From NCBI GenBank assembly GCA_020432105.1, contig JAGQGZ010000001.1:1-55163 (forward strand): 55,163 nucleotides of DNA, given 5' to 3'. The translations under genes were made by a program, and so were the position numbers. The notes below the pieces were generated by a model. That model was not told where the DNA came from, ran no database searches, and saw only the letters and a list, made by a program, of their open reading frames with translations. How positions within the stretch are numbered: the stretch's first letter is position 1; the number at the start of each line of letters is the position of its first letter. The DNA is from Dehalococcoidia bacterium. Lineage in GTDB: Bacteria > Chloroflexota > Dehalococcoidia > Tepidiformales > Tepidiformaceae. Positions 5,746 through 53,609 of the stretch are shown piece after piece.

Positions 5746-5860
5746 AAGTTTCACTGGTCAGAGATAGTCTGGGCCGTTACAATTGGCCTCGCCATAGCTG
5801 GCCCGCCCTACCGATCGGTCGGTGCCTGCATGCGGAATAGACTGAGGAAGGCGAAAGAAG

Positions 5861-6901
5861 ATGACAACAGCTGAAGTTTCCGCCCCTGGACTCGACCTTT
5901 CATGGCTGAACGTCGATGAGGGTTGGGGGGCGAACGCGACGCCGGGCCGCAAGGGCCTGACGCTCGACGACCTGAACGTAATGACCTACGGCGATGTGCC
6001 GACGCTGAACGGCCCCGCGACGATGGGTATGCGTGGTGCCCGCCCCGACCCACGGGCCGCCCGCCACGGTCGCCAGATTCACAACAAGGCCGAGGCCTGG
6101 AGTGAGTCGGCCCGGCTGCTTTACGAAGAGGCCCAGACCCGCCAGTGGTCTTCTGCCGTCGACATCCCCTGGGAAACGATCGAGGAACTCCCGGACGATA
6201 TCGAAATGGCGATGTGCACGCTCTGCACGTTCCTGACCCAGGTTGAGTTCATCGCCGGCGACCTCCCCGGCCGCTACATGGGCGAAGTTCACCCGGACGA
6301 ATTCGAAGTCCAGTTGTTCCTCGGGACGCAGCTCATGGACGAGTCGCGCCATGAGGACGTTTTCCGCAAGCGCGCCCTGGTGAACGGTGGCGGCCTTGTT
6401 GATTCCGGTTTCGGTGCGTCGCAGTTGCTCTCGGCCGATAACTTCACCGAGATGACCGCCCGCTTGCACCTTGTTGGCGAAGGATTCGTTCAGACCATCT
6501 TCCGGATGGGCGAACTGATCGCGAACAACGAAGCCGAGAAGCGGATCTATCGTCTCGCTGCACAGGACGAGTCGCGCCACCTGGCCTTCGGTGTAACCCA
6601 CCTGAAGTACCTGATGGAGACCGAGCCGGAGCGCCGCGAGGAGATGCACCACTACCTGGATGTCCAGGAAGGTGCGCTTGGCCAGTCGAACGGTTCGCTG
6701 ACCACCAACCCGGCTACCGGCGAAGCGCTCGCCATCCTCGCCGGTGGTGGCATCGACAAGATCGACGAAGGCTTCCAGAAGCTCATGATCATGCGCAAGA
6801 AGCAGATCAATGAGTACATGCATCGCCTCGAGGTCATCGGTCTTGGTGATCGCCGTGAGCGCATGGCCCCTGCCATGAAGGCATTCCTGGATCCGGCCTA
6901 G
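5861..6901 (+). CDS. ferritin-fold diiron-carboxylate protein with intact ligand set (putative oxygenase/oxidase catalytic subunit)
   Basis: Two E...(~31-33 aa)...DExRH units are present: TQVEFIAG...LMDESRHEDVF and VGEGFVQT...AAQDESRHLAFG. GAGGAAGG SD precedes ATG 5861. Confidence 0.75.
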   Translation: MTTAEVSAPGLDLSWLNVDEGWGANATPGRKGLTLDDLNVMTYGDVPTLNGPATMGMRGARPDPRAARHGRQIHNKAEAWSESARLLYEEAQTRQWSSAVDIPWETIEELPDDIEMAMCTLCTFLTQVEFIAGDLPGRYMGEVHPDEFEVQLFLGTQLMDESRHEDVFRKRALVNGGGLVDSGFGASQLLSADNFTEMTARLHLVGEGFVQTIFRMGELIANNEAEKRIYRLAAQDESRHLAFGVTHLKYLMETEPERREEMHHYLDVQEGALGQSNGSLTTNPATGEALAILAGGGIDKIDEGFQKLMIMRKKQINEYMHRLEVIGLGDRRERMAPAMKAFLDPA

Positions 6902-6905
6902 GACG

Positions 6906-8120
6906 ATGCAACTCAGCCCTGGTACAAAAATCCGCGCGGACGAAGCGGAGTGGCCTGATGCGCTCATCGAGCGCATCGAAGCCTCACCGCTGAAAGATAA
7001 GCAGGTGCGCTCCCTTCTTGCCCTGCGCCTGAACACTGACCGCATGACAGCCTTCCTCGATGCGGCCGACCAGAACGAGCAGGTTTACAAGATGGGCATG
7101 GTCTGGGCCATGCCCACCACGCAGCTTGGCATGCGGGCGCGTCCAGGGCCGAACGGCCTCGGCATGAAGGAGATCAATATCGGCACGTATGCTCACGTGC
7201 CCGACCATTGGCCCTATGAAAACGACACGCCGCTCGGGTCGCATCCGAGTCCCGGGTCATACATGCCCGGTCCCTACGCGATCTACACCAAGAGCGAAGT
7301 CTGGGCCGAGGGCCTGGACGAGCTGTATGACACGGCCATTCGCGAGCGCTGGGCGGCAGCGACGGCTATCGACTGGGCTGCACTGGAAGAGCAGCCCGAG
7401 GAGATAGAACGCGCGATCTGCCAGATCTGCACGCAGTTCGCCCAGCACGGACTCGCCATCCAGAAGGTCCTTGCCTCCTGGATGGAAAAGATCGCCTACG
7501 GCTTCCACGACATGAAGAACTTCGTGTCGACGCAGGTGTTCGATGAGGGCCGCAAGGTTGAAGTGCTGCGCAAGCGGTCACTCGCCAACGGCGGCGGCCT
7601 GGGCCAGCAGAGCTTTGGTACGCTCTACCGTTCCTGGTTCTCAGCGCCGAAGCCGACGCAGGTCCTCATTGCGATCGACGTCATCTACAAGTGCTACGAG
7701 ATCCCGACCTTCAAGAAGCTCGCGGAGATTTGCCCGAGCCCGGTGGACCGGGACATCTTCGCTCGCCTGGCGCACGATTCGGAGCGCCACCTGGAGTTCG
7801 GCAAGCGCCATCTCGAGTACTACGTCCAGCATCACAAGGATGCCCGCGAATTTCTCATCCACTACCTCAACCGTGGCGAGGCCTCGCTCGCGGATGAGCT
7901 CGAGCACTCGCGAGTCGACCTTGAGGCACTCATCGTCCTCCTGGCCGGCGGCGTCGAGCGGCTTGAGGTTGGAATCGAGGAGGTCCGGAAGCTGCGTGAG
8001 GCATCGTTGCGCAAGTACATCGGTGTTCTCGACGAACTCAGCATCGACCGGTTGCCGGAAATCAATCCGCAACTGATCTCCATTGCGCGTGATCCCCAGG
8101 CGGTTGTTGTCGCCGTCTAG
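6906..8120 (+). CDS. degenerate paralogue of the preceding diiron protein (ligand positions largely substituted; putative non-catalytic partner)
   Basis: It lies 4 nt after the previous stop. Shared segments with 5861..6901 include LGMRARPGP vs MGMRGARPDP, W..ATAIDW vs W.SAVDIPW and LRKRSLANGGGL vs FRKRALVNGGGL. The motif positions read QFAQHG, FDEGRK (His to Lys), CYEIPT and AHDSERH (shifted register). Confidence 0.7.
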   Translation: MQLSPGTKIRADEAEWPDALIERIEASPLKDKQVRSLLALRLNTDRMTAFLDAADQNEQVYKMGMVWAMPTTQLGMRARPGPNGLGMKEINIGTYAHVPDHWPYENDTPLGSHPSPGSYMPGPYAIYTKSEVWAEGLDELYDTAIRERWAAATAIDWAALEEQPEEIERAICQICTQFAQHGLAIQKVLASWMEKIAYGFHDMKNFVSTQVFDEGRKVEVLRKRSLANGGGLGQQSFGTLYRSWFSAPKPTQVLIAIDVIYKCYEIPTFKKLAEICPSPVDRDIFARLAHDSERHLEFGKRHLEYYVQHHKDAREFLIHYLNRGEASLADELEHSRVDLEALIVLLAGGVERLEVGIEEVRKLREASLRKYIGVLDELSIDRLPEINPQLISIARDPQAVVVAV

Positions 8121-8333: not shown

Positions 8334-9164
8334 ATGCCCACCGCGATCCGCCCCGGCCACCGCACCATCACCGCTTTCCTCGACGGGCCCGACAGCATGG
8401 ACATCCGCAATGTGATCCACGCTTCGGATGGCGCCAAGGAGTATGGCTACAAGGCCGCACTCGTGGGCGGCGTGACGGTCTATGGCTGGGCTGCTCCGGC
8501 GATACTCCAGTCGTTCGGGGAGGAGTGGCTGGGCACGGGCTGGGCCGACGTGTCGTTCCGCAAACCGGTGTATCCCGGCGACGAGATGACCGTCGACGTG
8601 ACGCCGGCTGACGACGGCTCGGCCACGCTTGCGATGACGAACCAGGACGCCGCCGTCTGTGTGGGCGGCAGGCTGGGCATGGGCACCCCCGACTTCGCGA
8701 ACGAGTACGTTCTACCGACCCGCCGGACCGCGGAGCCGGAACCGGCGGAACGTCCGCAACTGACGATGGCATCGGCGCCTGTGGGGCAGGACCTGCGGCC
8801 GATGGCCGTGCCGTACATGTCCGAGGACGCCAGGACGTACGCCGAGGAAAAGCAGCGCGACATGGACCCCCGCTGGAGTGAGGAGGGCGGTTATATCCAT
8901 CCCGGTTGGATGGCTGCCCGGATGACGCCGCTGATCCATCACAGCTACCACTACGGCCCCGCCATCCACGCGCGCAGCCAGATTCAGAACCTGCGCCCGG
9001 CACGCCTCGGCCAGGTGGTAACGGTGGCGGGCCATTTCCTCAAGACGTATGAGCGCAAAGGCCACCATTACGCCGTCGTTGACGGCGTGATCCTTGGCGA
9101 GGATGGAACGGAGCTGGCCTTTATCCGCCACACGACGATCTTTGAGGTCGCGAAGCGGGGATAG
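8334..9164 (+). CDS. double hotdog-fold MaoC-like (R)-hydratase/dehydratase family protein
   Basis: AAGGAG lies 7 nt before ATG 8334. The N-terminal half (DGAKEYGYKAALVGGVTVYGW...PVYPGDEMTV) and C-terminal half (YIHPGWMAARM...GQVVTVAGHFLKTYERKGHHYAVVDGVI) each look like a hotdog fold. The ORF-track start at 8136 is an upstream extension. Confidence 0.7.
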   Translation: MPTAIRPGHRTITAFLDGPDSMDIRNVIHASDGAKEYGYKAALVGGVTVYGWAAPAILQSFGEEWLGTGWADVSFRKPVYPGDEMTVDVTPADDGSATLAMTNQDAAVCVGGRLGMGTPDFANEYVLPTRRTAEPEPAERPQLTMASAPVGQDLRPMAVPYMSEDARTYAEEKQRDMDPRWSEEGGYIHPGWMAARMTPLIHHSYHYGPAIHARSQIQNLRPARLGQVVTVAGHFLKTYERKGHHYAVVDGVILGEDGTELAFIRHTTIFEVAKRG

Positions 9165-9166
9165 CC

Positions 9167-9532
9167 GTGGACGCGGTCCTGCGCGCCGCCATCGGCTTCT
9201 TCCTGATGGCGAGCGCTGCACTGGTGGGCGACGCAATCGCGGGCGACGACTGGAACCGGGCAGGTGGCTGGTTCCTTCTCCTGGGGGTGCCATTCATCTT
9301 GATGGCGATGGTCCCTCTTCCTGACTTCCGTTGGTTGAGCATCACGGCTGCGGCGGGCGGCGTCGCACTCGGCCTCGGCCTGTTCACCTTGTTCGCGGCC
9401 AACACCTCCGACTCAGGGTCGGCCGCCATGTGGCTCTACGTGCCGTGGTTCATGGTGCTCGGCTTTTCCGTGTACTGGGCGATGGGAGTGCTCCTCAAAG
9501 GCATCCACCGCCTCGCCGGACTGCATCGCTAG
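9167..9532 (+). CDS. small integral membrane protein (about 4 TM), unknown function
   Basis: GTG lies 2 nt after the MaoC-like stop. The sequence is hydrophobic throughout (FFLMASAALVG, WFLLLGVPFILMAMV, GVALGLGLFTLFAA, WFMVLGFSVYWAMGVLL). Confidence 0.55.
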   Translation: MDAVLRAAIGFFLMASAALVGDAIAGDDWNRAGGWFLLLGVPFILMAMVPLPDFRWLSITAAAGGVALGLGLFTLFAANTSDSGSAAMWLYVPWFMVLGFSVYWAMGVLLKGIHRLAGLHR

Positions 9533-10854
9533 CTCCCCAGCCGCTTGCCTGCCTGTTTCCTCAGCTCCGCACGGTGGTCCGGGTGGGCGATGCTGATCAG
9601 TTCGTTCGCGCGCTCGCGGTCGCTCTTGCCGAGAAGGCGGGCGACGCCGTGTTCGGTAACGACAATGTCGGCGAACTGGCGAGGGACGGTGACGACGGTC
9701 CCCGGTTCCAGCTGCGGCACGATGCGGGTGACAGTCCCGCCTTTCGCTGCTGAGGGGAGGACGGTGATGCTGCGGCCGTTCTTTGCCAGCAGCGCTCCGA
9801 TCGCGAATTCCGGCTGGCCGCCGGGACCGCTCCAGAGTTCGTGACCGAGTGATTCACAGGCGATCTGGCCGTAGAGATCAACCGTCAGTGCGTTGTTGAT
9901 TGCGACCATGTTGTCGTGGCGGGCGATCGTCTGGATGTCGTTGGTGTAGGAAACGTCGTAGACCTCGAACAGGGGATTCTCGTGGATGAACTCGATCTCC
10001 TCCGGTGTCCCGGCGAAGAGCGCCGTGGCCACGAACTTGCCCTTGTGGAGCGTCTTCTGCGAGCCGGTTATGGCGCCGTCGTAGACCAGCTGGTTGAGGC
10101 CGGGCACCGTGATCTCCGAATGGACGCCAAGCTCTTCCAGGCCATCAAGGGCGCCGGCTCCGACGAGCTGGCCGGTCATGGAGCCGGTGCCAATCTGGAC
10201 CGTGTCGCCGTCGCGGATGAACTCCCGGACATAGGCAGCCATAGCCGGGTCGATGGCCGCCCGGTCGCGCATGGGAAGGGGCGGCGGTGCCGCACCCTCA
10301 ACAAGGGCATCGAACTCGCCGACGTGGACCCGGTTGGCGCCGCCGGTCACCGGGTAGCCGGGGAAGATTTCGCCGATTTTCACCCGCGCGCGTTCCACGA
10401 ATGACGCCTTGTTCCACATGGATAGCCCGTAGGAGCAGAAGCCGAAGCGGTCGGGTGGTGAGATGCCGATGAGTGCGACGTCGGCGTGATTGGAGAGGTC
10501 GCCGCGTTCGTCTTCCGGCTTGAAGCGGCGGCTGAATGGGATGCTGACAAAGTCGGATCGCCCTTCGTTTACCGACGAGCGGGCAACGATGGTGTTGAAG
10601 AGTTCGACGCGACCGTGAAAGGCGGTGTGGCCGGGCGCGTACCAGCCGGGGTCGAAGAATGGCGCCGTGGAGAGGACGTGGACGTTCTCCAGGTCTTCCC
10701 GGCGGTCCCAGATTGCCTGGGCGATGGCGGGGGTGATCGAGCCGATAGGCATCACGACGCGGTCACCGTTTCGGACGAGCCTGGCGGCATCGGCCGGTTC
10801 CATGAGGCGGGCGGCATACTCTTCCGCCCACGTTGCATACCTGTTCTTTCGCAT
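9529..10854 (-). CDS. acetyl-CoA hydrolase/transferase family (family I, 4-hydroxybutyrate/succinate CoA-transferase-like)
   Basis: The 441-aa length and motifs are typical of the Cat1/Cat2/AbfT family (VQIGTGSMTG, GVHSEITVPG with candidate catalytic Glu, GGQPEFAIGA, C-terminal ANELISIAHPDHRAEL). Confidence 0.85.
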   Translation of the reverse strand: MRKNRYATWAEEYAARLMEPADAARLVRNGDRVVMPIGSITPAIAQAIWDRREDLENVHVLSTAPFFDPGWYAPGHTAFHGRVELFNTIVARSSVNEGRSDFVSIPFSRRFKPEDERGDLSNHADVALIGISPPDRFGFCSYGLSMWNKASFVERARVKIGEIFPGYPVTGGANRVHVGEFDALVEGAAPPPLPMRDRAAIDPAMAAYVREFIRDGDTVQIGTGSMTGQLVGAGALDGLEELGVHSEITVPGLNQLVYDGAITGSQKTLHKGKFVATALFAGTPEEIEFIHENPLFEVYDVSYTNDIQTIARHDNMVAINNALTVDLYGQIACESLGHELWSGPGGQPEFAIGALLAKNGRSITVLPSAAKGGTVTRIVPQLEPGTVVTVPRQFADIVVTEHGVARLLGKSDRERANELISIAHPDHRAELRKQAGKRLGS

Positions 10855-10970
10855 GCGACGAAATGATACGGGGCGATTTCTTAGCAGCCCGGCTCCCTTC
10901 CGTTTACGTTAGGGTATGGCGCCTGCTAGAGTGCTCCGCAACACGAACGACTTTCGGATAAGGAATGTAG

Positions 10971-12125
10971 ATGGATTTTCACGACTCCCCGGAACAGGCA
11001 ACCTGGCGCAACGAAGTACGCAGCTTCATCGAGTCCGAGCAGCCGGAGCGCGACGAAGCGCCGCTGATGATGGAGCGCGGGCGCAACCCCAGGCTCGCGG
11101 CCTGGCGGGAGAAGATCTCGAAGAAGGGCTGGGTGGCTCCGGCCTGGCCCAAGGAATACGGTGGCGCCGGTCTCGGGGTGATGGAGCAGTTCATCCTGAA
11201 TGAGGAGTTCGCCGAAGCGAGGGTGCCAAACGTGGGAGGCATGGGCACCTCGATGATCGGCCCGACGATCATCATCCACGGAAACGAGGAGCAGAAGCAG
11301 GAGCACCTCGGCGCCATCCTGCGGGGCGAAGTGCAGTGGTGCCAGGGCTACAGTGAACCCGGCTCCGGGTCTGACCTCGCGAGCCTGCAGACACGCGCGG
11401 TCCGCGACGGCGACGACTTCGTCATCAACGGCCAGAAGATCTGGACCAGCGGGGCACATACAGCCGACTGGATGTTCATGCTCGCCCGTACGGATCCCGA
11501 TGCACCGAAACACCGCGGGATCACCTATTTCCTCATGGATATGAAGAGCCCCGGCGTGACCGTGCGGCCGCTCATCAACATGGGGAACATGCACAACTTC
11601 AATGAGGTCTTTTTCGAGGATGTGCGGGTACCTGCCAGGAATGTACTCGGCGAGATCGACCGCGGCTGGTACATCGGGACGACCACTCTCGACTTCGAGC
11701 GCAGCAGCATTGGCAACTCTGTCGGCCAGCGCCAGACGCTGGAGTACTACCTGCGTTACATCAAGCAGAACAACGCCGATGTCTCCGGCACGGTGAAGGG
11801 CGAGCTTGCCGACCGCTGGATCGAGGCGATGACTGCCAAGAACCTCAGCTACCGGGTGATCACCATCCAGGCGGAGGGTCGGGTTCCGAACCACGAGGCC
11901 TCCATCGCCAAGATGTTCAACACCGAGCTGAGTCAGCGCATCGCCCGCACGGCGATGAAGGTGCTGGGCACCGCCGGTCAACTGACCGATGCCGAACAGG
12001 CGCCGATGAAGGGGCGTGTCGCAGCGAGCTACCTGGCGACGGTGAGCAGCACGATTGCCGGTGGCACCAGCGAGATCCAGCGCAACATTGTTGCCACGCG
12101 GGGCCTGGGCCTGCCGCGGGCGTAG
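10971..12125 (+). CDS. acyl-CoA dehydrogenase family protein
   Basis: ACAD hallmarks are present (GYSEPGSGSDLASLQTRAVRDGDDFVINGQKIWTSGA; C-terminal IAGGTSEIQRNIVA). It is a paralogue of 16668..17864. Confidence 0.9.
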   Translation: MDFHDSPEQATWRNEVRSFIESEQPERDEAPLMMERGRNPRLAAWREKISKKGWVAPAWPKEYGGAGLGVMEQFILNEEFAEARVPNVGGMGTSMIGPTIIIHGNEEQKQEHLGAILRGEVQWCQGYSEPGSGSDLASLQTRAVRDGDDFVINGQKIWTSGAHTADWMFMLARTDPDAPKHRGITYFLMDMKSPGVTVRPLINMGNMHNFNEVFFEDVRVPARNVLGEIDRGWYIGTTTLDFERSSIGNSVGQRQTLEYYLRYIKQNNADVSGTVKGELADRWIEAMTAKNLSYRVITIQAEGRVPNHEASIAKMFNTELSQRIARTAMKVLGTAGQLTDAEQAPMKGRVAASYLATVSSTIAGGTSEIQRNIVATRGLGLPRA

Positions 12126-12150
12126 CCACCGAATAGCGCACACCATTGGA

Positions 12151-12186
12151 GATGCCCGGCACCTGCTGCCGGGCATCTTTCGTTTT
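12151..12186 (+). terminator. rho-independent terminator
   Basis: A perfect 11-bp stem GATGCCCGGCA / TGCCGGGCATC with a 5-nt loop is followed by TTTCGTTTT. It lies 25 nt after the ACAD stop. Confidence 0.75.
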
Positions 12187-12210
12187 AGCAGGATCACCTA
12201 GACTTCCTCC

Positions 12211-13020
12211 GTGATTACGGTCCGGGCCTATGGGAACGCGGGGCCGCCGCTATTCGTCCTGCACGGCGGGCCGGGTGCGGCCGGCTACATGGCGCCCGTG
12301 GCGAGGAAGCTGGGTCGTGACTACCGTGTTTTCGAGCCGTTGCAGCGGCGGAGTGGCGATATCCCCCTCACGGTCGATCAGCACATCGCAGACCTGCACG
12401 AGGTAATCAAGGTGCACTGCCCGGGTGAACGGCCTGCACTCGTCGGGTCTTCCTGGGGAGCGATGCTGGCACTCGCGTCTGCTGCTGCGCACCCAGGGAC
12501 GTTCGGGCCACTGGTGCTCATCGGGTCCGGGACGTTCACGGACGAATCGAGTGCGGAGTTTCACCGCGTGCTCGATTCGCGCGCGGCCCCGGGTGTAGAC
12601 GACCGGATCCGCGCAGCCGCTGAAGCTACCGACCCGGACGCCGCACTCGCCGCTATCGCCAGCGATCTTGATGCGCCGTATTCTTTCGACCTTCTCGACA
12701 GCCGGTCGGACAACGAATGGGTGGATGCCAGGGGTAACAGGGAGACGAATGACGACTGGAGCCGGCGCCGAACTGCGGGTGAGTTTCCGGCGAGCTTTGC
12801 GGCAATCAAGCAACCGGTGCTGATGATCCACGGCGCCGTAGATCCCCATCCCGGGCCGATGATTCGCGATAGCCTGTTGCCGGTATTGCCCCGGCTTGAG
12901 TACGTGGAACTGGACCGCTGCGGTCACTATCCCTGGCGGGAGCGCTTCGCAAGGGATAGGTTCTACGAAGTCCTGAGGAGCTGGCTCGCGAAGCATCTGC
13001 CCGGGACGCCAGCGGCGTAG
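12211..13020 (+). CDS. alpha/beta hydrolase (S33 proline-iminopeptidase-like HGGPG motif)
   Basis: It has VLHGGPGAAG, the nucleophile elbow GSSWGA and a C-terminal CGHYPW. There is no clear SD before GTG 12211. Confidence 0.75.
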   Translation: MITVRAYGNAGPPLFVLHGGPGAAGYMAPVARKLGRDYRVFEPLQRRSGDIPLTVDQHIADLHEVIKVHCPGERPALVGSSWGAMLALASAAAHPGTFGPLVLIGSGTFTDESSAEFHRVLDSRAAPGVDDRIRAAAEATDPDAALAAIASDLDAPYSFDLLDSRSDNEWVDARGNRETNDDWSRRRTAGEFPASFAAIKQPVLMIHGAVDPHPGPMIRDSLLPVLPRLEYVELDRCGHYPWRERFARDRFYEVLRSWLAKHLPGTPAA

Positions 13021-13022
13021 AA

Positions 13023-13763
13023 TTGCGGACGATGCATCAACCGCTTGTCATCGGTCACGCCTGCGCGGGTGGAGAAGCGCCGCACAACACGCTGGCCGGT
13101 GTGCGAGCCTGCCTGGCGACTGGCGCCCAGGCCATGGAGATCGATGTTCAGCTCAGTGCTGATGGTATCCCGGTGCTCATGCACGACAACACCGTGGACC
13201 GCACGACCAACCTCAGCGGCCCCGTGTCGTCGTTTACGGCGGCCGAGTTGGCGAAGGCGGATGCCGGCGACGGCGAGAAGGTACCGACGCTGGCCGAGGT
13301 ACTCGACCTTGTGGATGGCCGGCTCACTGTACTCTGCGAACTGAAGCGGACAGAAGGCGAGGCCGCCCGCGATTCGGCCCTCGTCGATGCGGTGGTGGCA
13401 GCGGCGATCCGTCGTGGTAGCGAAGCCTGGACGGGCATCCATTCGTTCAATCTCGATATCGTCGAGCGAGCCCGGGCCCTGGCACCGGAGTTGTCCGCGG
13501 CAGTCATCTCGGGACCGGTCGAGGGTGAACGGCAGGACACGTTGTTCCACGGCGCACTTGTCCGCGGGGCACAGGCGATCTCGGTTCATCACAGTTGCAT
13601 TGATTCCGAGTTCGTTGTGGCGGCCAAGCGGCGTCAGCTCACCGTCTGGACCTGGACGCCGGACGAGGAAGCCGTATGGGAGCGCCTTGCCGAAACCGGT
13701 GTGGACGGCATCATCACCAACTACCCAACGAGGCTCACACGATTCCTGGCGAGCAGGCACTGA
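13023..13763 (+). CDS. glycerophosphodiester phosphodiesterase (GDPD) family
   Basis: It has VIGHACAGGEAPHNTL...MEIDVQLSADGIPVLMHDNTVDRTTN and a C-terminal GVDGIITNYP. The start is TTG 13023 or ATG 13032. Confidence 0.85.
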   Translation: MRTMHQPLVIGHACAGGEAPHNTLAGVRACLATGAQAMEIDVQLSADGIPVLMHDNTVDRTTNLSGPVSSFTAAELAKADAGDGEKVPTLAEVLDLVDGRLTVLCELKRTEGEAARDSALVDAVVAAAIRRGSEAWTGIHSFNLDIVERARALAPELSAAVISGPVEGERQDTLFHGALVRGAQAISVHHSCIDSEFVVAAKRRQLTVWTWTPDEEAVWERLAETGVDGIITNYPTRLTRFLASRH

Positions 13764-13851
13764 CTCGCAGGCCACCTGCCCACTGTGGCCCTTGACGACG
13801 GCGGAAGTCCCGGCGGCGGATAGCTCGCCGCTCGCTGCTTATACTTCGGGG

Positions 13852-16596
13852 GTGCCGGAAACCGAAAAGGGCCCACGACTCGTCATCCTCGACTCTCACG
13901 GGATACTGTTCCGGGCGTTTTTTGCCTTCGCCAACAGCGAGCACCCGCTGATGACATCGAAGGGCGAACTGACCTTCGCCACGCACGGCTACGCGGAGAC
14001 GCTGATCCGAGTGCTCGACCAACTGAGCCCCACGCACATCTGTGCCGCCTGGGACGCACCGGGCAAGACCTTTCGGCATGAAGCGAGTGAGGCGTACAAG
14101 GCTACGCGGCGCGCCACTCCATCGGAGCTGCTGGTCCAGATGAAGCGCGTAAGGGAGATGCTCGATGCGTTCGGCATCCCAATCTTTGAGGCGCCGGGGT
14201 TCGAGGCTGATGATGTGGCCGGGACCCTGGCCCGGATGGCTGCCGAGCAGGGGATACAGACCTACATAGCGACGCTGGACACCGACCTCGTCCAGCTTAT
14301 TGGGCCGAAGGTAAACCTGTTTATGTTCCGGCCCTACCAGCGCGATACCATCGACTACAACGAGAAGCGGGCGGCCGAACGCTACGGATTCAGTCCCATC
14401 TACATGATCGATTACAAGGCGCTCAAGGGGGACACGAGCGACAACATCGAAGGCATCAAGGGCATCGGCGAGAAGACCGCAACGAACCTCATCCGGGAGT
14501 ACGGCACCGTCGAGTCTATCTACGAGCACATTGACGAGATAAAGGGTGCGCTGAAGACGAAGCTGGCCGACAACGAAGACCGGGCCATCGCCAACAAAGA
14601 GCTGGTGACGATCAAGACGGACCTTGATATCGATTTCGACCTCGAGGCCTGCCGCGTGAAGAACTTCGACCGCGAGAAGATCGCCGACATCTTTCGCGAG
14701 CTCGAATTCCGGATGCTTGCGGGGAGGCTGGACGAGGTGCTCGGGATGGCGACGGCCGGGGCCGCTGCCGCAGATACGGCCGACACGAAGTACGAAACAG
14801 TGACCGGCAAGGAAGCGCTGGAAGCGGTGGCCCGCGCGATTCGTGAGAAGGGGTCGGTGGCCGTCAACACGTTTTCGACAGCGGGCGAAGAGGTCGGGGA
14901 GATGCTTCTCGGTATTTCCCTGGCAACCGAACCCGGGCGGGCCTGGTATGTCCCGGTTGGGCATGCGCCGCGGCTGGACGACGACGTCCCCCAGCTACCG
15001 ATTGAGACGGTAGTCGAGGTCCTGGGGCCCACCTTTGCCGACGCGAGCATTGCCAAAGCGGCGTACTCGGCCAAGTACGTGAAGCATCAGCTCGACAAAG
15101 CGGGCATGGCGTTTGAGGGGACGGATTTCGATGCCTCGATCGTCGCCTTTCTGCTCGGTGAGACATCGTCGACGCTTGCACCCCTGGTGAATGAGCGGCT
15201 GGGAATCCAGGTGGCAACGCCGGTAACGCTGACGGGAACGGGTCGCAAGGCGACACCGCTGGCACAGGTGGAGATAGAGGAAGTGGCGCTTAGTGCCTGC
15301 CAGTACGCCGACATGGTGCTACGGCTGCGTCCCGAGCTGGAACAGCAGCTGGCAGAGCGCGAGCTGGTCACGTTGTATGAGGAGATTGAGTTGCCGCTCA
15401 TGCCCGTGCTCTACGAGATGGAGCGTGTGGGCATGTACATGGACCCGGAGGTGCTCCGCCAGATCTCGATCGCGATGGTCGATGACATCGCCCGGGCCGA
15501 ACGCGAGGTCTACGAGGAGGTCGGGCACGAGTTCAATATCGGGAGCCCGAAGGCCCTGAGTGATGTGCTGTTCGGCGAGATGGGACTGCCGAAGACACGA
15601 AAGACGGCCCTTGGCTACAGCACCGACCAGCGGGCTCTTGAATCGCTCAGAGCTACGGCGCCGGTCGTGGACAAGATCTTCGAGTGGCGAGCACTGACCA
15701 AGCTGAAGTCGACCTACCTGGATGCGCTCCCGGCGACCATCGCGAGAGATGGCCGGATCCACACGGACCTGCAACAGACCGTAGCGGCCACCGGCCGCCT
15801 CAGCAGCACGAATCCGAACCTCCAGAACATCCCGGTGCGAACCGATGCAGGGCGTGACATTCGCCGGGCGTTCGTCGCGTCACACTTCGAGGAGCCTGTC
15901 CTGGTCGCCTGCGACTATTCACAGATCGAGCTCCGCGTGCTGGCCCACATCACCGCGGACAAGGGACTGGTCGACGCCTTCCTTGACGATCAGGACATTC
16001 ATCGGACCACCGCGGCCACGGTCTTTAGTGTGAAGCCCGAGGAGGTGACCCGGCAGATGCGGGACATCGCCAAGATGGTGAACTTCGGCATCGCCTACGG
16101 CATGGGTGAATTCGGCCTGGCGAGCCGTACCGGCCTCAGTCGCGAGGAGGCAGCGGACTTCATCAAGAGCTACTACACGAACTTCCCGGGCATCAAGGAC
16201 TGGCAGGAAGCAACCTTGAACGAGACGAAGAACAAGGGCTACGGGGAGACGTTGTTCGGCCGCCGGCGCTACCTGCCGGCGATCCACAGCTCGAACTTCC
16301 AGGTGCGTTCGGCGGCCGAACGTGAGGCGATCAACATGCCGATCCAGGGCACGGCTGCCGACATCATCAAGATTGCGATGATCCGGATAGCCGATGCCAT
16401 GCGTGAGCGGGAACTTTCGAGCCGCATGATCCTCCAGGTTCACGACGAATTGATCTTCGAGTGCCCGGAGGACGAGTCAGGGCAGATTGGGGAACTGTGC
16501 CGAGAGATCATGCCTGCCAGCCTCGAGATGAAGGTGCCGCTGAAGGTTGATTTGAAGAAAGGCCCCAACTGGGGACAAATGGAGCCGATCGCGTAA
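13852..16596 (+). CDS. polA: DNA polymerase I
   Basis: A 5'-nuclease N-terminus (LVILDSHGILFRAFFAF) is followed by pol motif A DYSQIELRVLAH, motif B RDIAKMVNFGIAYG and motif C LQVHDELIFE. The start is GTG 13852 (alt. TTG 13792). The ORF-track start at 13387 overlaps the GDPD gene and is an extension. Confidence 0.95.
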   Translation: MPETEKGPRLVILDSHGILFRAFFAFANSEHPLMTSKGELTFATHGYAETLIRVLDQLSPTHICAAWDAPGKTFRHEASEAYKATRRATPSELLVQMKRVREMLDAFGIPIFEAPGFEADDVAGTLARMAAEQGIQTYIATLDTDLVQLIGPKVNLFMFRPYQRDTIDYNEKRAAERYGFSPIYMIDYKALKGDTSDNIEGIKGIGEKTATNLIREYGTVESIYEHIDEIKGALKTKLADNEDRAIANKELVTIKTDLDIDFDLEACRVKNFDREKIADIFRELEFRMLAGRLDEVLGMATAGAAAADTADTKYETVTGKEALEAVARAIREKGSVAVNTFSTAGEEVGEMLLGISLATEPGRAWYVPVGHAPRLDDDVPQLPIETVVEVLGPTFADASIAKAAYSAKYVKHQLDKAGMAFEGTDFDASIVAFLLGETSSTLAPLVNERLGIQVATPVTLTGTGRKATPLAQVEIEEVALSACQYADMVLRLRPELEQQLAERELVTLYEEIELPLMPVLYEMERVGMYMDPEVLRQISIAMVDDIARAEREVYEEVGHEFNIGSPKALSDVLFGEMGLPKTRKTALGYSTDQRALESLRATAPVVDKIFEWRALTKLKSTYLDALPATIARDGRIHTDLQQTVAATGRLSSTNPNLQNIPVRTDAGRDIRRAFVASHFEEPVLVACDYSQIELRVLAHITADKGLVDAFLDDQDIHRTTAATVFSVKPEEVTRQMRDIAKMVNFGIAYGMGEFGLASRTGLSREEAADFIKSYYTNFPGIKDWQEATLNETKNKGYGETLFGRRRYLPAIHSSNFQVRSAAEREAINMPIQGTAADIIKIAMIRIADAMRERELSSRMILQVHDELIFECPEDESGQIGELCREIMPASLEMKVPLKVDLKKGPNWGQMEPIA

Positions 16597-16667: not shown

Positions 16668-17864
16668 ATGCGATTTGCCGACACACCCGAACTCGCCACG
16701 TGGCGAACGACGGTCCGCAGCTTCCTCGACGAACACTGGCACAGCACCGGTAGCGACGATGAGTCCGAAGCCGCAACGAGCATGGAGAACGAAGAGCAAT
16801 TCCAGGCACGGATGAAGCGCTCGCAGGCATGGCTCGACAAGCTGGGCGAGAATGGCTGGATCGCCCCGGCCTGGCCCAAGGAATATGGCGGCGCCGATAT
16901 GTCCGTGCTTGAGCAGTTCGTGCTGAGCCAGGAGCTGACCCAGGCGGGAGCGCCCACCAGCCGCCAGATGCTCAACCTTGTGGGCCCAACGATCATGCTC
17001 CACGGCACGGACGAGCAGAAAGCCGAACACCTTCCACCGATGCTCCGGGGCGAGGTGGCATGGTGCCAGGGCTTCAGCGAACCGGGCTCGGGTTCTGACC
17101 TTGCGAGCCTCCAGACCCGCGCCGTGCGCGACGGCGACGACTACGTGGTCAACGGCCAGAAGATCTGGACCAGCGGCGCTCACAGGGCGGACTGGATGTT
17201 CATGCTCGCCCGCACCGACCCGGATGCACCGAAGCACCGTGGGATTAGCTACCTGCTGATCAACATGAAGGACCCGGGCGTCTCCGTGAGGCCACTAATC
17301 AACATGCACGACGGCCACGTCTTCAACGAGGTCTTCTTCGAGGATGTGCGGGTGCCGGTGCGCAACCGGATCGGCGAGGAGAACCGCGGATGGTACGTCG
17401 GCACGACGACGCTTGACTTCGAGCGGTCGAACATTGCCCGGGTGGTGAACATCAAGAAGAGCCTGGCGAAGGTCCTCGACTACACTCAGGCCAGGGAGGT
17501 GAATGGCGAGGCGGTAGGCCGCCCGCAGCGGATGGAGCTCGCCGACCGAGCCGTCGAGACGGCTGTATGTGAGCTGCTTTCGTTCCAGGTCGTTTCCATC
17601 CAGGCGTCGGGTGGGGTGCCGAACATGGAAGCGAGCATGAACAAGATGTACGGGTCCGAATTGCAGCAGCGAGTGGCCCGCACCGCCATGAATATCACCG
17701 GTATGCGTGGCCAACTCCGCCAGCCCGAAGGTCTGGAGTCGGAACACGGAATCCAGGCGGCAATGAACTACCTTTCAACGGTGCCGGCGACGATCGCTGC
17801 AGGCACCAGCGAAATCCAGCGCAACATCATCGCCACTCGCGGCCTCGGTCTCCCGCGGGGCTGA
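16668..17864 (+). CDS. acyl-CoA dehydrogenase family protein (paralogue of 10971..12125)
   Basis: It has GFSEPGSGSDLASLQTRAVRDGDDYVVNGQKIWTSGA and IAAGTSEIQRNIIA. Long stretches are identical to the other ACAD. Confidence 0.9.
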   Translation: MRFADTPELATWRTTVRSFLDEHWHSTGSDDESEAATSMENEEQFQARMKRSQAWLDKLGENGWIAPAWPKEYGGADMSVLEQFVLSQELTQAGAPTSRQMLNLVGPTIMLHGTDEQKAEHLPPMLRGEVAWCQGFSEPGSGSDLASLQTRAVRDGDDYVVNGQKIWTSGAHRADWMFMLARTDPDAPKHRGISYLLINMKDPGVSVRPLINMHDGHVFNEVFFEDVRVPVRNRIGEENRGWYVGTTTLDFERSNIARVVNIKKSLAKVLDYTQAREVNGEAVGRPQRMELADRAVETAVCELLSFQVVSIQASGGVPNMEASMNKMYGSELQQRVARTAMNITGMRGQLRQPEGLESEHGIQAAMNYLSTVPATIAAGTSEIQRNIIATRGLGLPRG

Positions 17865-17936: not shown

Positions 17937-20201
17937 TTACGAGAGCTGGTTCAACTCCTCGACCACCCGGCGTGGCGAAATCGGGAGTTCGGTGAAGCGG
18001 TGGCCCGTCGCATCCTCAATCGCATTGGCGATTGCGGCGAGCGGCGGGACGATCGGTACTTCGCCTACCCCACGTACTCCGTACGGGTGGCCGGGGTTCG
18101 GTACTTCCACAACGATCGTCTCGATATAGGGAACATCGAGTGTGGTGGGCATCCGGTAGTCGAGGAAGCTCGAGTTCCGGAGGTGTCCTTCTTCGTCGTA
18201 GAAGTATTCCTCGTTCAGGGCCCAACCGATGCCCTGGACCACGCCACCCTGGATTTGCCCTTCGACGTAGGCCCGATGAATGGCCGTTCCCACGTCCTGG
18301 ACAGCTGTGTAGCGGAGGATCTCAACCTTGCCCGTCTCAGGGTCGACTTCGACGTCGACGATGTGGGTGGCGAAAGCGCCTCCCGCACCACGGGCGACCA
18401 GCGAGGCGGAACCGGTGATGGGACCGCCTGTGCGAGCCTGCTGGGCTGCCATCTCCTTGAAGGTCAGGGTCTTGGTCGAGTCTTTCTTGCAGTGGAGTTC
18501 GCCGTCGATGTAGTCGACATCGTCCTCGCTGCAGTTCCAGAGCTTCGCCGCCCGCTCGGCCATCTGCTTGCGGATGTTCATCCCCGCCTCGTAGGTGGCA
18601 AGGCCTGTCGCGAAGGTTACGCGGCTGCCGCCGGTGACGTCGTTGTGGGGGATGGAGTCGGTATCGGCAACGACCGGGCGGACGTCCTCGAAGGGGATCT
18701 GAAGGGTCTCGGCGAGCTGCATGGCAAGGGAGGCGCGAGTGCCTCCGATGTCGGTCGAGCCTTCGATGAGGTTAACGGTGCCGTCGGGGTTGACACCGGC
18801 GATGACCGATGACTGCATGCCTGCATTGAACCAGAACCCGGAAGCAACGCCGCGGCCGCGATTGGGGCCCTCGATGGGCGACTTCCAGTGGTCGCTTGCC
18901 AGCGCTGCCTGGACCGTCTCCTCGGCGCCGATGCGCGGGTGCGCCACCCCGTTGACCATCTTCACGCCTTCGCGCGAGCTATTCGAGTCGCGGAAGTTGA
19001 GCACATCGAGTTTGAGGGCCTTGCAGGCCTCGTCGATGGCCTGCTCGATGGCGAAAGCGGCCGCGGGGGCGCCGGGGGCCCGGTATGCGGCAACCTTTGG
19101 CTTGTTGACGACGACGTCGTACGCGTTGAGCCGGAAGTTCGGGACGTCGTAGGGCGAAAGCATCGTCATCGCACCGGCACCGACCGGTGATCCAGGGAAG
19201 GCGCCGGCCTCGTAGGCCATGGTCGCGTCCACGGCATGGATCTTGCCATCCTTGATGCCGAGCTTGATGTGGATGTAACTGCCGCTGGTGGGGCCGGTGG
19301 CCTCGAAGACGTCGGTGCGGTTCATCGAGATCTTGACCGGCTTGCCCGTCTTGCGTGAGAGGACCGCCGCTACGGGATCGAGATAGATCACCGTCTTGCC
19401 ACCAAAACCGCCGCCGATCTCCAGGGGCGTGACCCGGATCGACGAGAGCGGAACGGCGAGCACCTGGGAGGTGAGGGAGCGCACACCGAAGGCGCCCTGG
19501 GTGCTGGTGTAGATCTGAATTGTGTCGTCGGAGTTCCACATCGCCGTCGACGAATGCGGCTCGATGTAACCCTGGTGGACCATCCGCGTGCGGTACTCGC
19601 GGTCGACAACGTGGTCGGACTCGGCGAGCGCCTTTTCGACATCGCCATCTTCGAAACGGTTGTGCGAAGCGATGTTGCTGGGCTTGTCGCTGGTTTGGCC
19701 GCCCATCACCTTGGTGTGGCGATTCTCATCGAGTAGTGGTGCGTCTTCGCGCATGGCGTCGCGAACGTCGAGGACGGGCGGAAGCAATTCGTACTCGACC
19801 TTGATTGCACGCGCGGCGGCTTCTGCTTCGAAGTGGGACCGGGCGGCGACCGCAGCCACCGCGTGTCCGTGGTAGAGCACCTTGTCGTGAGCAAGGATGT
19901 TGCTGCTGAGTTCTTTCAGGTTGACCGCGGACTCGCCGATGGCTTCAACCTTGTCGGCTGCTGCCGGGAGGTCCGTGTGCGTGGCGACGGCCATGACACC
20001 GGGCATCTTCGCCGCCTCGCTGGTGTCAATCTTGATGACCCGGGCGTGAGCGTGAGGGCTGCGGAGGATAGCTCCGTAGAGCAACCCGGCGGGCTTGAAG
20101 TCCGCGGCGTAGCGGGCGGCGCCTGTGACCTTCTCCGCCCCGTCGGGACGAATTGGGCTGGTGCCGATGATCTTGTAGTCCGGGCGTTCGACTGTCGTCA
20201 T
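17937..20201 (-). CDS. xanthine dehydrogenase/aldehyde oxidase family molybdopterin-binding large subunit (CoxL-like, not a bona fide CODH)
   Basis: It has MTTVERPDYKIIGTSPIRPDGAEKVTGAARYAAD, EIGGGFGGK and AAYRAPGAP. GGAGG lies 8 nt before ATG 20201, and an ATGA overlap joins it to the upstream 2Fe-2S gene. Confidence 0.9.
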   Translation of the reverse strand: MTTVERPDYKIIGTSPIRPDGAEKVTGAARYAADFKPAGLLYGAILRSPHAHARVIKIDTSEAAKMPGVMAVATHTDLPAAADKVEAIGESAVNLKELSSNILAHDKVLYHGHAVAAVAARSHFEAEAAARAIKVEYELLPPVLDVRDAMREDAPLLDENRHTKVMGGQTSDKPSNIASHNRFEDGDVEKALAESDHVVDREYRTRMVHQGYIEPHSSTAMWNSDDTIQIYTSTQGAFGVRSLTSQVLAVPLSSIRVTPLEIGGGFGGKTVIYLDPVAAVLSRKTGKPVKISMNRTDVFEATGPTSGSYIHIKLGIKDGKIHAVDATMAYEAGAFPGSPVGAGAMTMLSPYDVPNFRLNAYDVVVNKPKVAAYRAPGAPAAAFAIEQAIDEACKALKLDVLNFRDSNSSREGVKMVNGVAHPRIGAEETVQAALASDHWKSPIEGPNRGRGVASGFWFNAGMQSSVIAGVNPDGTVNLIEGSTDIGGTRASLAMQLAETLQIPFEDVRPVVADTDSIPHNDVTGGSRVTFATGLATYEAGMNIRKQMAERAAKLWNCSEDDVDYIDGELHCKKDSTKTLTFKEMAAQQARTGGPITGSASLVARGAGGAFATHIVDVEVDPETGKVEILRYTAVQDVGTAIHRAYVEGQIQGGVVQGIGWALNEEYFYDEEGHLRNSSFLDYRMPTTLDVPYIETIVVEVPNPGHPYGVRGVGEVPIVPPLAAIANAIEDATGHRFTELPISPRRVVEELNQLS

Positions 20202-20677
20202 ACCTTGGCCTCCATCTGGTCGGATGCCTTGAGCACCGCGCGAACGATCTTGTCGTAACCGGTGCAGCGGCAGAGGTTGTTGGCCAGCCAATGGCGAACA
20301 CGGGCTTCGTCAGGGTGCGGTTCCTTATCGAGGAGCGCCTTGGAAGCGACGATGAACCCGGGAGTGCAGATCCCGCACTGGAGGGCAGCCTCTTCGAGGA
20401 AGACCTGCTGCAGCGGGTGGAGGCGATCGCCTTCGGCGATGCCTTCGATAGTGGTGACCTCTGCGCCCTCGGTCTCGACTGCGAGTACGCAGCATGAGTT
20501 CACCACGCGGCCGTTCAGGATTACTGAACAGGCGCCACAGTTGCCGTTATTGCAACCTTCTTTGCTCCCGGTTAGTCCGAGGTTGTCGCGTAGCACTTCG
20601 AGCAAGCTCTGGCGTGGTTCGCAGAGGAAGTCGACGTTGTCGCCATTGAGGCGGGTGGATACGTGGGTCCTGCGCAA
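20198..20677 (-). CDS. (2Fe-2S)-binding small subunit of the molybdenum hydroxylase (CoxS-like)
   Basis: Cys clusters are CNNGNCGACSV, CGICTPG and CRCTGY. TTG 20677 has AAGGAG 10 nt upstream and gives 159 aa. The ORF-track start at 20722 overlaps the upstream gene. Confidence 0.9.
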   Translation of the reverse strand: MRRTHVSTRLNGDNVDFLCEPRQSLLEVLRDNLGLTGSKEGCNNGNCGACSVILNGRVVNSCCVLAVETEGAEVTTIEGIAEGDRLHPLQQVFLEEAALQCGICTPGFIVASKALLDKEPHPDEARVRHWLANNLCRCTGYDKIVRAVLKASDQMEAKV

Positions 20678-20678
20678 G

Positions 20679-21554: not shown

Positions 21555-21708
21555 ACATATCCTTCTGAACAATGCGGTCGACCGGCTACAAGGCCGATCG
21601 TTGGGCCTGATCATACGGTTCACGCGGGCCCTTGTCTTCGTGGGCGCCATCGCCCCCGGCCCGCGTATACTTCGGTTGCACCAAATGAATCTCGAGGGGG
21701 GTGCGGTC

Positions 21709-53443: not shown

Positions 53444-53609
53444 AGTTGCAGTTTCCGGGGCCGCGGCTGCAGCGTCGAACGCTCCGCAGCACTTTCGGTG
53501 GTGGCGTTTCGGTGAACCTTGCGTGAAACCCCTTACAGAGCAGGGATACCGTCTATCGATGTATAGCCGATGATGGTTGGACAACCTGGTATAGAGGAGG
53601 TGCGTAACG

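Follow-up and report, generated by a model that had tools for sequence, protein, structure and literature searches.

In this study, we analysed a stretch of 55,163 nucleotides from a Dehalococcoidia bacterium of the family Tepidiformaceae (GenBank assembly GCA_020432105.1, contig JAGQGZ010000001.1; the window hereafter, with a G+C content of 62-66%) and, within it, two adjacent genes called A and B here. An earlier reading of the letters alone (the original prediction) had proposed that the two open reading frames (ORFs), of 346 and 404 aa and separated by 4 nt, encode one intact and one degenerate ferritin-fold diiron protein belonging to no characterised system. The coordinates were confirmed: the genes lie head to tail on the plus strand, with 4 nt between the TAG of A and the ATG of B. 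The best protein matches of the window point to a Dehalococcoidia or Tepidiformaceae-like Chloroflexota genome. We assign the pair to a new and so far uncharacterised family, which belongs to the R2/R2lox branch and thus to an enzyme kind already known, and show that the combination of an intact with a degenerate member is conserved across the Chloroflexota. The genes are laid out as follows:

5844..5851 (+): Shine-Dalgarno-like sequence GAGGAAGG, read from the sequence, 9 nt ahead of the ATG of gene A
5861..6901 (+): gene A, ORF of 346 aa, taken as the catalytic subunit
6906..8120 (+): gene B, ORF of 404 aa, taken as the non-catalytic partner subunit

The dimetal site of A

The diiron-carboxylate signature, which the original prediction had seen twice in A, is real. 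The ligands are E129 (TQVEFIA) and, 32 residues on, E161/H164 (LMDESRH), followed by E207 (LVGEGFV) and, 30 residues on, E237/H240 (AQDESRH). All six positions are invariant in an alignment of 42 sequences with 61-81% identity, the ligand columns read EEHEEH in 79 of 79 A-type proteins from 87 loci, and the alignments place the Glu and His residues listed originally in metal-ligand columns. Since its sequence provides every ligand of a two-metal site, we regard A as the presumed catalytic subunit. Its features, from the N terminus on, are:

5861..6085 (+): N-terminal extension, residues 1-75, conserved in sequence (W15, G32, Y43, R58)
6245..6247 (+): codon of ligand E129, helix 1, TQVEF; invariant
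6341..6352 (+): codons of ligands E161 to H164, DESRH, first ExxH; invariant
6362-6364 (+): codon of F168, which occupies the position of the R2 radical Tyr in the hhalign alignment to Escherichia coli NrdB
6365..6394 (+): RKRALVNGGG loop, following the first ExxH helix and near-invariant throughout the family, whether the subunit is intact or degenerate
6479..6481 (+): codon of ligand E207, LVGEGF; invariant, and flanked by H203 and Q211, which are likewise invariant and share its face of the helix
6569..6580 (+): codons of ligands E237 to H240, QDESRH, second ExxH

Residues 1-72 are predicted to be disordered in the monomer model of A (AF2, predicted local-distance difference test score (pLDDT) <50). 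In the 42-sequence alignment F168 is invariant and there is no conserved Tyr past the last helix, the C terminus reading ...DRRERMAPxxxxFLDP. There is also no Tyr in residues 195-207 of A (FTEMTARLHLVGE, the turn ahead of E207), and the residue four before E237 is A233.

B, a degenerate paralogue of A

That B is a clear paralogue of A was borne out by BLASTP, which aligns the two with 29% identity over 320 aa (E 2e-42). Two of the shared motifs named originally, W..A.DIPW and RKRxLxNGGG, are real and near-invariant in both subunits. A third, MGMRGARPDP in A and LGMRARPGP in B, did not hold up, as the two segments are not aligned with each other; in the BLASTP alignment GMRARPGPNGL of B pairs with GANATPGRKGL of A. 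The six ligand columns of B contain G182, E214, K217, K262, S292 and H295, so that two of the six ligands are kept. The original prediction was right that the site is degenerate, but had read the columns differently (Q/H, E..K, the E of CYEIPT and a shifted E..H). Its conclusion is strengthened by the orthologues, since most of them read G-A-K-K-S-H (50 of 73 B-type partners) and so keep one ligand column of six; the remaining partners carry other non-ligand combinations, and the site is degenerate in 73 of 73. The features of B are:

6906..7289 (+): N-terminal extension, residues 1-128, a small helical domain (5-61) and then a highly conserved, unstructured stretch
7449..7451 (+): column 1, G182 where A has Glu
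7545..7556 (+): columns 2 and 3, E214 (Ala in most orthologues) and K217 where A has His
7569..7598 (+): RKRSLANGGG loop, counterpart of the loop in A
7689..7691 (+): column 4, K262 where A has Glu; Lys is invariant among B orthologues
7779..7790 (+): columns 5 and 6, S292 where A has Glu, and H295, which is kept

B is nevertheless under constraint: more than 210 orthologues with 48-82% identity were found, and 59 columns are invariant among 43 of them. The unstructured stretch of the N-terminal extension has the conserved sequence PDxWPYENDTPLGSHP, and the AF2 model of B has a pLDDT of 81.5. Several non-ligand residues are kept in both proteins, namely W96 (W149 in B) within an R2-like 'RQWSSAxDIPW' motif, an Asp and an Arg flanking each present or former ExxH, the RKRxLxNGGG loop and Y319 (Y371 in B), and these common residues point to a shared scaffold or interface.

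A few relatives have unusual domain arrangements. In some degenerate B-like proteins an N-terminal SnoaL/NTF2-like domain takes the place of the helical domain seen in B of the window; the domain has a Pfam match in P0328 only and was recognized by eye, without a Pfam match, in P0246 and P0255. In the A-like protein P0364, which scores above the Pfam threshold for AurF, part of a flavoprotein of the lycopene-cyclase type is fused to the family domain. As Rosetta-stone fusions, P0364, P0377 and the SnoaL-fused B-like proteins are too sporadic for interpretation.

Fold and family placement

Neither protein reaches a cut-off in Pfam or NCBIfam, and the matches below threshold are to R2, R2lox and COQ7 models only. 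With the Pfam model Ribonuc_red_sm (PF00268), A reaches 16.7 bits (E 0.005) where 33.6 are required, and B has no match; the NCBIfam R2lox models NF006200 and NF006202 give 28.2 bits against a cut-off of 194 and 21.1 against 315, respectively. A search of the PDB with the single sequences gave a marginal match to VlmB for A and only noise for B. When a profile of A was used, the best match was a VlmB homologue (6d9f/8wvr, E 1.6e-5), followed by Geobacillus R2lox (E 4e-4 to 1e-3). In the hhalign comparison with E. coli NrdB (E 0.004), E161/H164/F168 fall on E115/H118/Y122 and E237/H240 on E238/H241, whereas no sequence relationship is detectable with E. coli PaaA (E 0.33) or PaaC (E 0.23). Foldseek matches of the A model include ADO, R2lox, R2, PaaAC, VlmB and MMOH, with E-values of about 3e-3 to 2e-2, while for the B model the top 25 matches are all R2lox (best E 1.7e-4). 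According to these models, A and B have the ferritin/R2 fold; A combines the helical core with the two E...ExxH units of ferritin-like diiron-carboxylate proteins, and B has the fold only.

The closest known relatives are thus the R2lox proteins and the beta subunit (R2) of class I ribonucleotide reductase (RNR). R2lox (PDB 4HR0, 3EE4) has in common with the pair the ferritin/R2 fold, the E/ExxH/E/ExxH ligands and the N-terminal 'W-x-x-A-x-D-I-x-W' motif. However, it is a homodimer of identical subunits, whereas the pair consists of an intact and a dead one, and in contrast to R2lox both subunits have long N-terminal extensions and relatives with ferredoxin and sterol carrier protein 2 (SCP2)-like partners. 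The Tyr of the Tyr-Val ether cross-link of R2lox is also missing from A (residues 195-207); in the numbering of PDB entry titles and the literature, this cross-link joins V72 and Y162 of GkR2lox, near ligands E69 and E167. The physiological function of R2lox is unknown, and a hydrophobic fatty-acid ligand has been found bound to it (PMC9314684). With R2 itself, the pair shares the fold, the ligand register and the conserved second-sphere Trp and Asp residues, but the radical Tyr is a Phe in A, there is no recognizable C-terminal alpha-binding tail, and the family is multi-copy. Among class I RNR beta proteins, a Phe at the position of the radical Tyr is known only from class Ic.

The original prediction had likened the pair to the hydroxylases of bacterial multicomponent monooxygenases (BMM), to PaaA/PaaC and to yeast Rnr2/Rnr4. 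The logic of a catalytic and a degenerate subunit stands, but the nearest relatives in sequence are R2 and R2lox and not BMM or PaaA/PaaC. In Rnr2/Rnr4, the precedent of the R2 type, the metal ligands have been lost from one of the two paralogues of the dimer. PaaA/PaaC and the alpha and beta subunits of the BMM hydroxylases likewise combine a catalytic diiron subunit with an adjacent, homologous subunit that has no ligands, which is a likeness of logic and not of membership: matches to A and B exist at the level of the fold, whereas subunit sizes and extensions differ, neither protein matches Pfam PaaA_PaaC (PF05138) or Phenol_Hydrox, and PaaB, PaaD, PaaE or MmoB-type genes were not found nearby. 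VlmB, the best PDB match of the A profile, shows a short local similarity only, over both ExxH helices including the FR(K/R)xxL segment. The N-oxygenases of the AurF/CmlI type have a third His (HxxxExxH on the last ligand helix), which is absent from A, where this position is A233; window A has no match to Pfam AurF (PF11583) even at E <= 1, and weak matches occur only in some Acidimicrobiia-type and distant members of the family.

With the R2 radical Tyr, the C-terminal Tyr tail, the R2lox cross-link Tyr and the third His of AurF all missing, the pair falls outside the described families. A ferritin-like oxygenase that cleaves acyl-CoA or acyl-ACP, BioE, is homodimeric (PMC12704756) and probably distinct. 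No NCBIfam model claims A, and neither bio genes nor the GntR/MocR-type BioL are conserved beside the pair. We found no description of this family in the literature, and all 1506 homologues of A are either unnamed or called 'ferritin-like domain-containing'. When clustered at 90% identity, the family comprises over 1500 sequences of the A type and over 1300 of the Acidimicrobiia type, and at 50% identity about 100 clusters with E < 1e-30; its hosts are aerobic Dehalococcoidia and Tepidiformales, sponge and marine Chloroflexota, and Acidimicrobiia. A plasmid collection yielded only ferritin-like genes of 22% identity, in Xenorhabdus and Pantoea clusters, and was uninformative.

Conservation of the pair in the Chloroflexota

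Relatives were scanned with one genome per species, and the best 80 of 371 relatives are all Chloroflexota. The order of A followed by B was scored by tblastn, and three further loci, which stop at a contig edge, were left out. An intact A followed on the same strand by a second, degenerate member was found in 76 of 77 informative Chloroflexota loci, which answers the question of conservation on which the original prediction depended. The sole exception (L084 in OY969711.1) has A alone; it is a third copy on a chromosome that also holds two pairs, L038 and L082. A is better conserved than B in 68 of 68 loci, with a median identity to the window proteins of 64% as compared to 44%. The pairwise divergences of A and B across loci are correlated with r = 0.96, which indicates that whole pairs have been inherited and duplicated together, and at least 11 assemblies have two or three pairs.

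The recurrent neighbours of the pair, none of them at more than 18 loci, reflect clade synteny, and include a RecF-like ATPase and a diacylglycerol-kinase-like protein in some clades. In one clade (L069, L070, L077, L078, L081, L083, L086 and related loci), an iron-dependent repressor of the DtxR/IdeR type with an FeoA/SH3 domain is encoded divergently upstream of A, and beyond it a response-regulator-GGDEF-HD protein; the repressor could mean that one isoform is regulated in a metal-dependent manner. In another clade (L032, L034, L041, L047, L048, L050, L053, L054, L056 and L074), the gene directly upstream of A on the same strand encodes a 749-aa CopC-CopD-cytochrome c fusion, with CopC and PD40 genes farther upstream. 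Downstream of A-B, this clade has an alpha/beta hydrolase, a Na+/H+ exchanger with TrkA domains, a DsbD_TM protein and a 3-hydroxyisobutyrate-dehydrogenase-like gene.

Sister lineages encode a small protein and a ferredoxin beside the intact subunit

The original prediction had stressed that no redox partner is visible. This holds for the window, where no reductase, ferredoxin or effector gene adjoins A-B, and for the Chloroflexota generally, but not for the sister lineages, which encode a ferredoxin and an accessory protein beside the catalytic subunit. The Acidimicrobiia branch of the family has 43% identity to A, the full ligand set and no degenerate paralogue. In its operon A is followed by a conserved protein of about 150 aa, called X here, and then by a ferredoxin of about 130 aa with two [4Fe-4S] clusters and a Cys-rich C-terminal extension. 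We collected 87 sister-lineage loci, 80 from a metagenome scan and seven found earlier (L087-L093), of which 76 are informative, and X adjoins the intact subunit in 74 of these. The order A then X (type I) occurs in 47 loci, from Acidimicrobiia and related metagenome sequences, with a ferredoxin after X in 31 of them and without one in 16. In a third lineage (type II; 27 loci) X precedes A, and a second family member follows A in 23. This second member is degenerate wherever its ligand columns were scored (AEHGVS, QALAAQ, AWLGTQ and others), with the exception of one locus, which also carries a further intact copy. The remaining two of the 76 loci have A followed by a ferredoxin without X, and A alone.

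X has no match in Pfam and is named 'hypothetical protein' by NCBI. The best PDB matches of an X profile are to the Thermus SCP2 (2cx7, 1wfr; E 0.006 over 80 residues), and on this basis X may be regarded as weakly SCP2-like. The possibility that the N-terminal extension of B is a fused X was rejected, as neither BLAST nor a hidden Markov model (HMM) of X shows any similarity. The ferredoxins of the A-X-ferredoxin operons have a conserved C-terminal extension of about 70 aa with at least eight Cys in zinc-ribbon-like CPxCG / CxxC pairs, which seems, from the sequences compared, to be specific to this operon. Examples are:

L087, 9595-9978: extended ferredoxin
L088, 9550-9954: extended ferredoxin
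L089, 9575-9973: extended ferredoxin
L090, 9893-10282: extended ferredoxin

Recurrent neighbours of the operons of types I and II are TetR regulators, in many cases divergently oriented, cytochromes P450, short-chain dehydrogenases/reductases (SDRs), acyl-CoA dehydrogenases and hydrolases; luciferase-like monooxygenases and DsbA-like proteins are also found there. Coq4-domain proteins are encoded a few kb from the A-X-ferredoxin operon in L092 (10509-11690) and L093 (9018-10001), the latter with a P450 nearby. Loci L098 and L099 have syntenic neighbours in common with these two, P450 included, and Coq4 was seen in this one syntenic group only; a link to quinone hydroxylation would be intriguing. 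Within the Chloroflexota, locus L009, whose A is 80% identical to that of the window, encodes after A-B and on the same strand (10420-14188) a GAF-histidine kinase, a response regulator and then X (12311-12817), followed by a Zn-dependent alcohol dehydrogenase and an 84-aa 7Fe-type ferredoxin.

Origin of the degenerate partner

Neighbour-joining (NJ) trees with bootstrap were calculated for 61 representatives. The degenerate and intact subunits of type II (A2+B2) group together with 96% bootstrap, and A and B of the Chloroflexota (A3+B3) are on one side of a split with 87%, while all degenerate subunits (B2+B3) come together in 2% of the replicates. This suggests two independent duplications, in each of which one copy lost its metal site. 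A dead partner that has arisen twice in turn suggests that the heterodimer has been selected for, and its apparent repeated origin offers a clean case for asking why such dimers become asymmetric.

Proposed function of the pair

Because the pair is conserved, the site of A invariant and neither protein placed by profile searches in a curated family with a known substrate, the original interpretation of an undescribed enzyme system is supported. It is refined in that the system is R2/R2lox-like, has partners in other lineages and includes an asymmetric dimer that seems to have evolved twice. On balance we regard it as probable that the two proteins assemble into a heterodimer that activates O2 at a dimetal centre, A being the catalytic and B the structural subunit. 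This enzyme would probably receive electrons from a ferredoxin and act on a hydrophobic substrate. We infer the physical heterodimer, the O2 chemistry, the dependence on ferredoxin in this organism and the hydrophobic nature of the substrate alike; for the heterodimer, the conserved adjacency, the co-diversification and the two apparently independent origins of the pair give indirect support.

R2-type proteins are obligate dimers, and A and B would together make up such an R2/R2lox-type ferritin-fold dimer, now asymmetric. A would bind Fe2 or Mn/Fe through E129, E161/H164, E207 and E237/H240 and activate O2. B would be a duplicate stripped of its metal ligands that has retained the fold, the scaffold residues and a very conserved N-terminal arm, and that may serve as a structural or substrate-presenting partner. 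By analogy with the sister lineages, electrons may come from a ferredoxin, which in the Chloroflexota would be encoded away from the pair; the dedicated ferredoxin of the sister lineages suggests that the chemistry needs external electrons, like that of a monooxygenase or desaturase. The substrate may be a fatty-acyl or isoprenoid-like compound that is hydroxylated, desaturated or otherwise oxidised. A hydrophobic substrate is suggested by the SCP2-like X, by the R2lox-like fold and by the TetR and P450 neighbours. In COQ7-COQ9 and in the Ubi hydroxylases with UbiJ/UbiT (SCP2), a small protein that binds lipids assists an oxygenase whose substrate is very hydrophobic. The weakly SCP2-like X echoes this helper. 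The analogy is functional only: no homology between COQ7 and A could be demonstrated (NCBIfam E 0.087), and the window has no gene for X close to A-B. More tentatively, we consider it possible, although rather less than likely, that the pair is the Chloroflexota form of a widespread and hitherto unrecognised multicomponent R2-like oxygenase consisting of a catalytic and a dead subunit, an SCP2-like carrier and a ferredoxin, with a lipid-like substrate and a dead-partner heterodimer that evolved twice.

Several observations weigh against this interpretation. No CxxCxxCxxxCP motif of 4Fe-4S ferredoxins occurs anywhere in the 55-kb window, the X HMM finds no homologue of X there, and a reductase partner is likewise missing from it. 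Among the 86 other Chloroflexota loci the ferredoxin motif is present in L009 and L051 only and a small ferredoxin in L009 only, which is also the one locus with X, about 2 kb downstream of the pair. The pair has no conserved operon partner, as no neighbour family occurs in more than 18 of 87 loci, and in some clades the neighbours are related to metals or thiols (the CopC/CopD-cytochrome c fusion, DsbD, DsbA-like proteins and the DtxR-type repressor). In addition, the assignment of X as SCP2-like is weak, A was modelled by AF2 with no more than moderate confidence (pLDDT 73), and the trees that suggest two origins of the dead partner are simple distance trees.

The metal- and thiol-related neighbours would fit a role of the pair in stress or metal homeostasis, as a ferroxidase, in iron handling, or as a rubrerythrin-like peroxidase that uses ferredoxin electrons to reduce H2O2 or lipid hydroperoxides. 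E/ExxH/E/ExxH is also the ligand set of bacterioferritin and rubrerythrin, a divergent DtxR/IdeR-type repressor is present in nine loci, the CopC/CopD-cytochrome c fusion, DsbD and DsbA-like thioredoxins occur in some clades, a catalase gene lies upstream in L092, and no genes of a substrate pathway are conserved among the neighbours. However, we consider such a role unlikely, as sequence and fold are nearest to R2/R2lox dimers, and not to rubrerythrins or the ferritins that form cages, and there is no Pfam match to Rubrerythrin or Ferritin; the fold and the partners are better suited to an enzyme. Iron-storage and peroxidase systems are not known to include a dead partner that is conserved or an SCP2-like accessory, the TetR, P450, SDR and acyl-CoA dehydrogenase neighbours of types I and II suggest small-molecule metabolism, and the metal-related neighbours are synteny of particular clades and not family-wide.

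It is also conceivable, though we give it little weight, that A and B work separately, A as a homodimeric enzyme and B as a non-enzymatic regulator, chaperone or ligand binder. The Acidimicrobiia-type A has no degenerate paralogue and is therefore presumably able to homodimerise, B has its own N-terminal helical domain, and L084 carries A alone. On the other hand, 76 of 77 loci have the two genes in one order and orientation and separated by short gaps only, whole pairs co-diversify, an intact and dead pair seems to have arisen independently in two lineages, and B keeps the scaffold residues of A; this pattern fits the known obligate heterodimers Rnr2/Rnr4 and PaaA/PaaC and is difficult to square with separate functions.

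That A is a VlmB/AurF-like N-oxygenase or another tailoring oxidase of specialised metabolism, with B as an accessory, we consider improbable. In the PDB the A profile matches the VlmB homologue best, Pfam AurF is weakly matched by P0364 and by some members of the Acidimicrobiia type, and very distant ferritin-like relatives on Xenorhabdus and Pantoea plasmids lie in clusters resembling those of non-ribosomal peptide synthetases. Yet the VlmB match spans the two ExxH helices only, window A has no AurF match, the position of the extra His ligand of AurF, four residues ahead of the last Glu, is A233 in A, and no biosynthetic gene cluster surrounds any of the approximately 170 loci examined; identities of at least 60% across an entire class, with two or three copies in at least 11 assemblies, would also be atypical of enzymes that tailor a specialised metabolite. 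That A/B is an unusual class I RNR beta, generating a radical or oxidant for an NrdA encoded elsewhere in the manner of Rnr2/Rnr4, is highly improbable: the weak Ribonuc_red_sm and NrdB matches, the conserved R2-type Trp (W96) and His-Asp network residues and the Phe known from class Ic speak for it, but the Pfam score is far under the cut-off, the flexible C-terminal tail has no conserved Tyr, no RNR alpha (nrdA)-like gene is found among the annotated window genes or the recurrent neighbour families (no dedicated NrdA search was made), the family is present in two or three copies in at least 11 assemblies, and an SCP2-like protein and a ferredoxin, neither of them required by RNR, accompany its relatives.

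Ferritin-fold dimetal enzymes are responsible for some of the most difficult oxidations known in biology: they hydroxylate methane and arenes, desaturate, form alkanes, oxygenate nitrogen and generate the radical needed for DNA synthesis, and new families of them have repeatedly been a source of new chemistry. The R2lox proteins have had no assigned function since 2009, and if the multicomponent interpretation is true, operons would for the first time give clues to what the long-enigmatic R2lox branch of ferritin-like proteins does. The family is large, strongly conserved and found in abundant environmental lineages, while no Pfam or NCBIfam model covers it. It is also tractable, since the genomic context offers partners that can be tested, the ferredoxin and the SCP2-like protein, and cultured Tepidiforma hosts exist.

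Surroundings of the pair in the window

Upstream of A, the sequence at 5755-5783 resembles a promoter no more than expected by chance, the promoter and terminator scan as a whole being at chance level, and an alignment of six upstream regions gave no conserved regulatory motif. The next gene after B, 213 nt past it, encodes a MaoC-like double-hotdog protein and probably starts at 8334, behind a GGAG site. It is the first of a cluster of CoA-ester genes directly 3' of the pair:

8334-9164 (+): weak MaoC-like double-hotdog protein
9167-9532 (+): 121-aa membrane protein without a Pfam match
9529-10854 (-), 10971-12125 (+) and 16668-17864 (+): further members, namely an enzyme of the 4-hydroxybutyrate/acetyl-CoA-transferase family and two acyl-CoA dehydrogenases, of which one has PimC as its closest match

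A CoA-ester substrate was considered from these neighbours and not adopted. Since relatives with about 80% identity (L007-L009) have no MaoC-like, CoA-transferase or acyl-CoA dehydrogenase genes beside the pair, the cluster is not counted as substrate evidence, and the linkage of A-B to it is probably incidental.

Farther downstream, 17937-20291 (-) encodes a molybdopterin subunit of the CoxL/xanthine-dehydrogenase type and the adjoining 20198-20722 (-) a [2Fe-2S] CoxS-like small subunit. The latter is the only small iron-sulfur protein among the annotated ORFs of the window, and is a molybdoenzyme subunit and not a free ferredoxin. An atypical kinase of the ABC1/UbiB/COQ8 type, a family associated with quinone and lipid handling, is encoded at 52070-53584 (-) (Pfam ABC1, E 6e-65), with no link to the pair established. 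A nitronate-monooxygenase-like gene is present at 21601-22863. Family III CoA-transferases occur as two tandem pairs on the plus strand, 22866-24116 / 24113-25369 and 38836-40074 / 40075-41289. The first pair was confirmed by Pfam, while the second and a partial gene at 54541-55155 (-) were recognized by N-terminal sequence similarity only. These duplications resemble the expanded paralogue families that have been reported from SAR202-like genomes and those of aerobic Dehalococcoidia.

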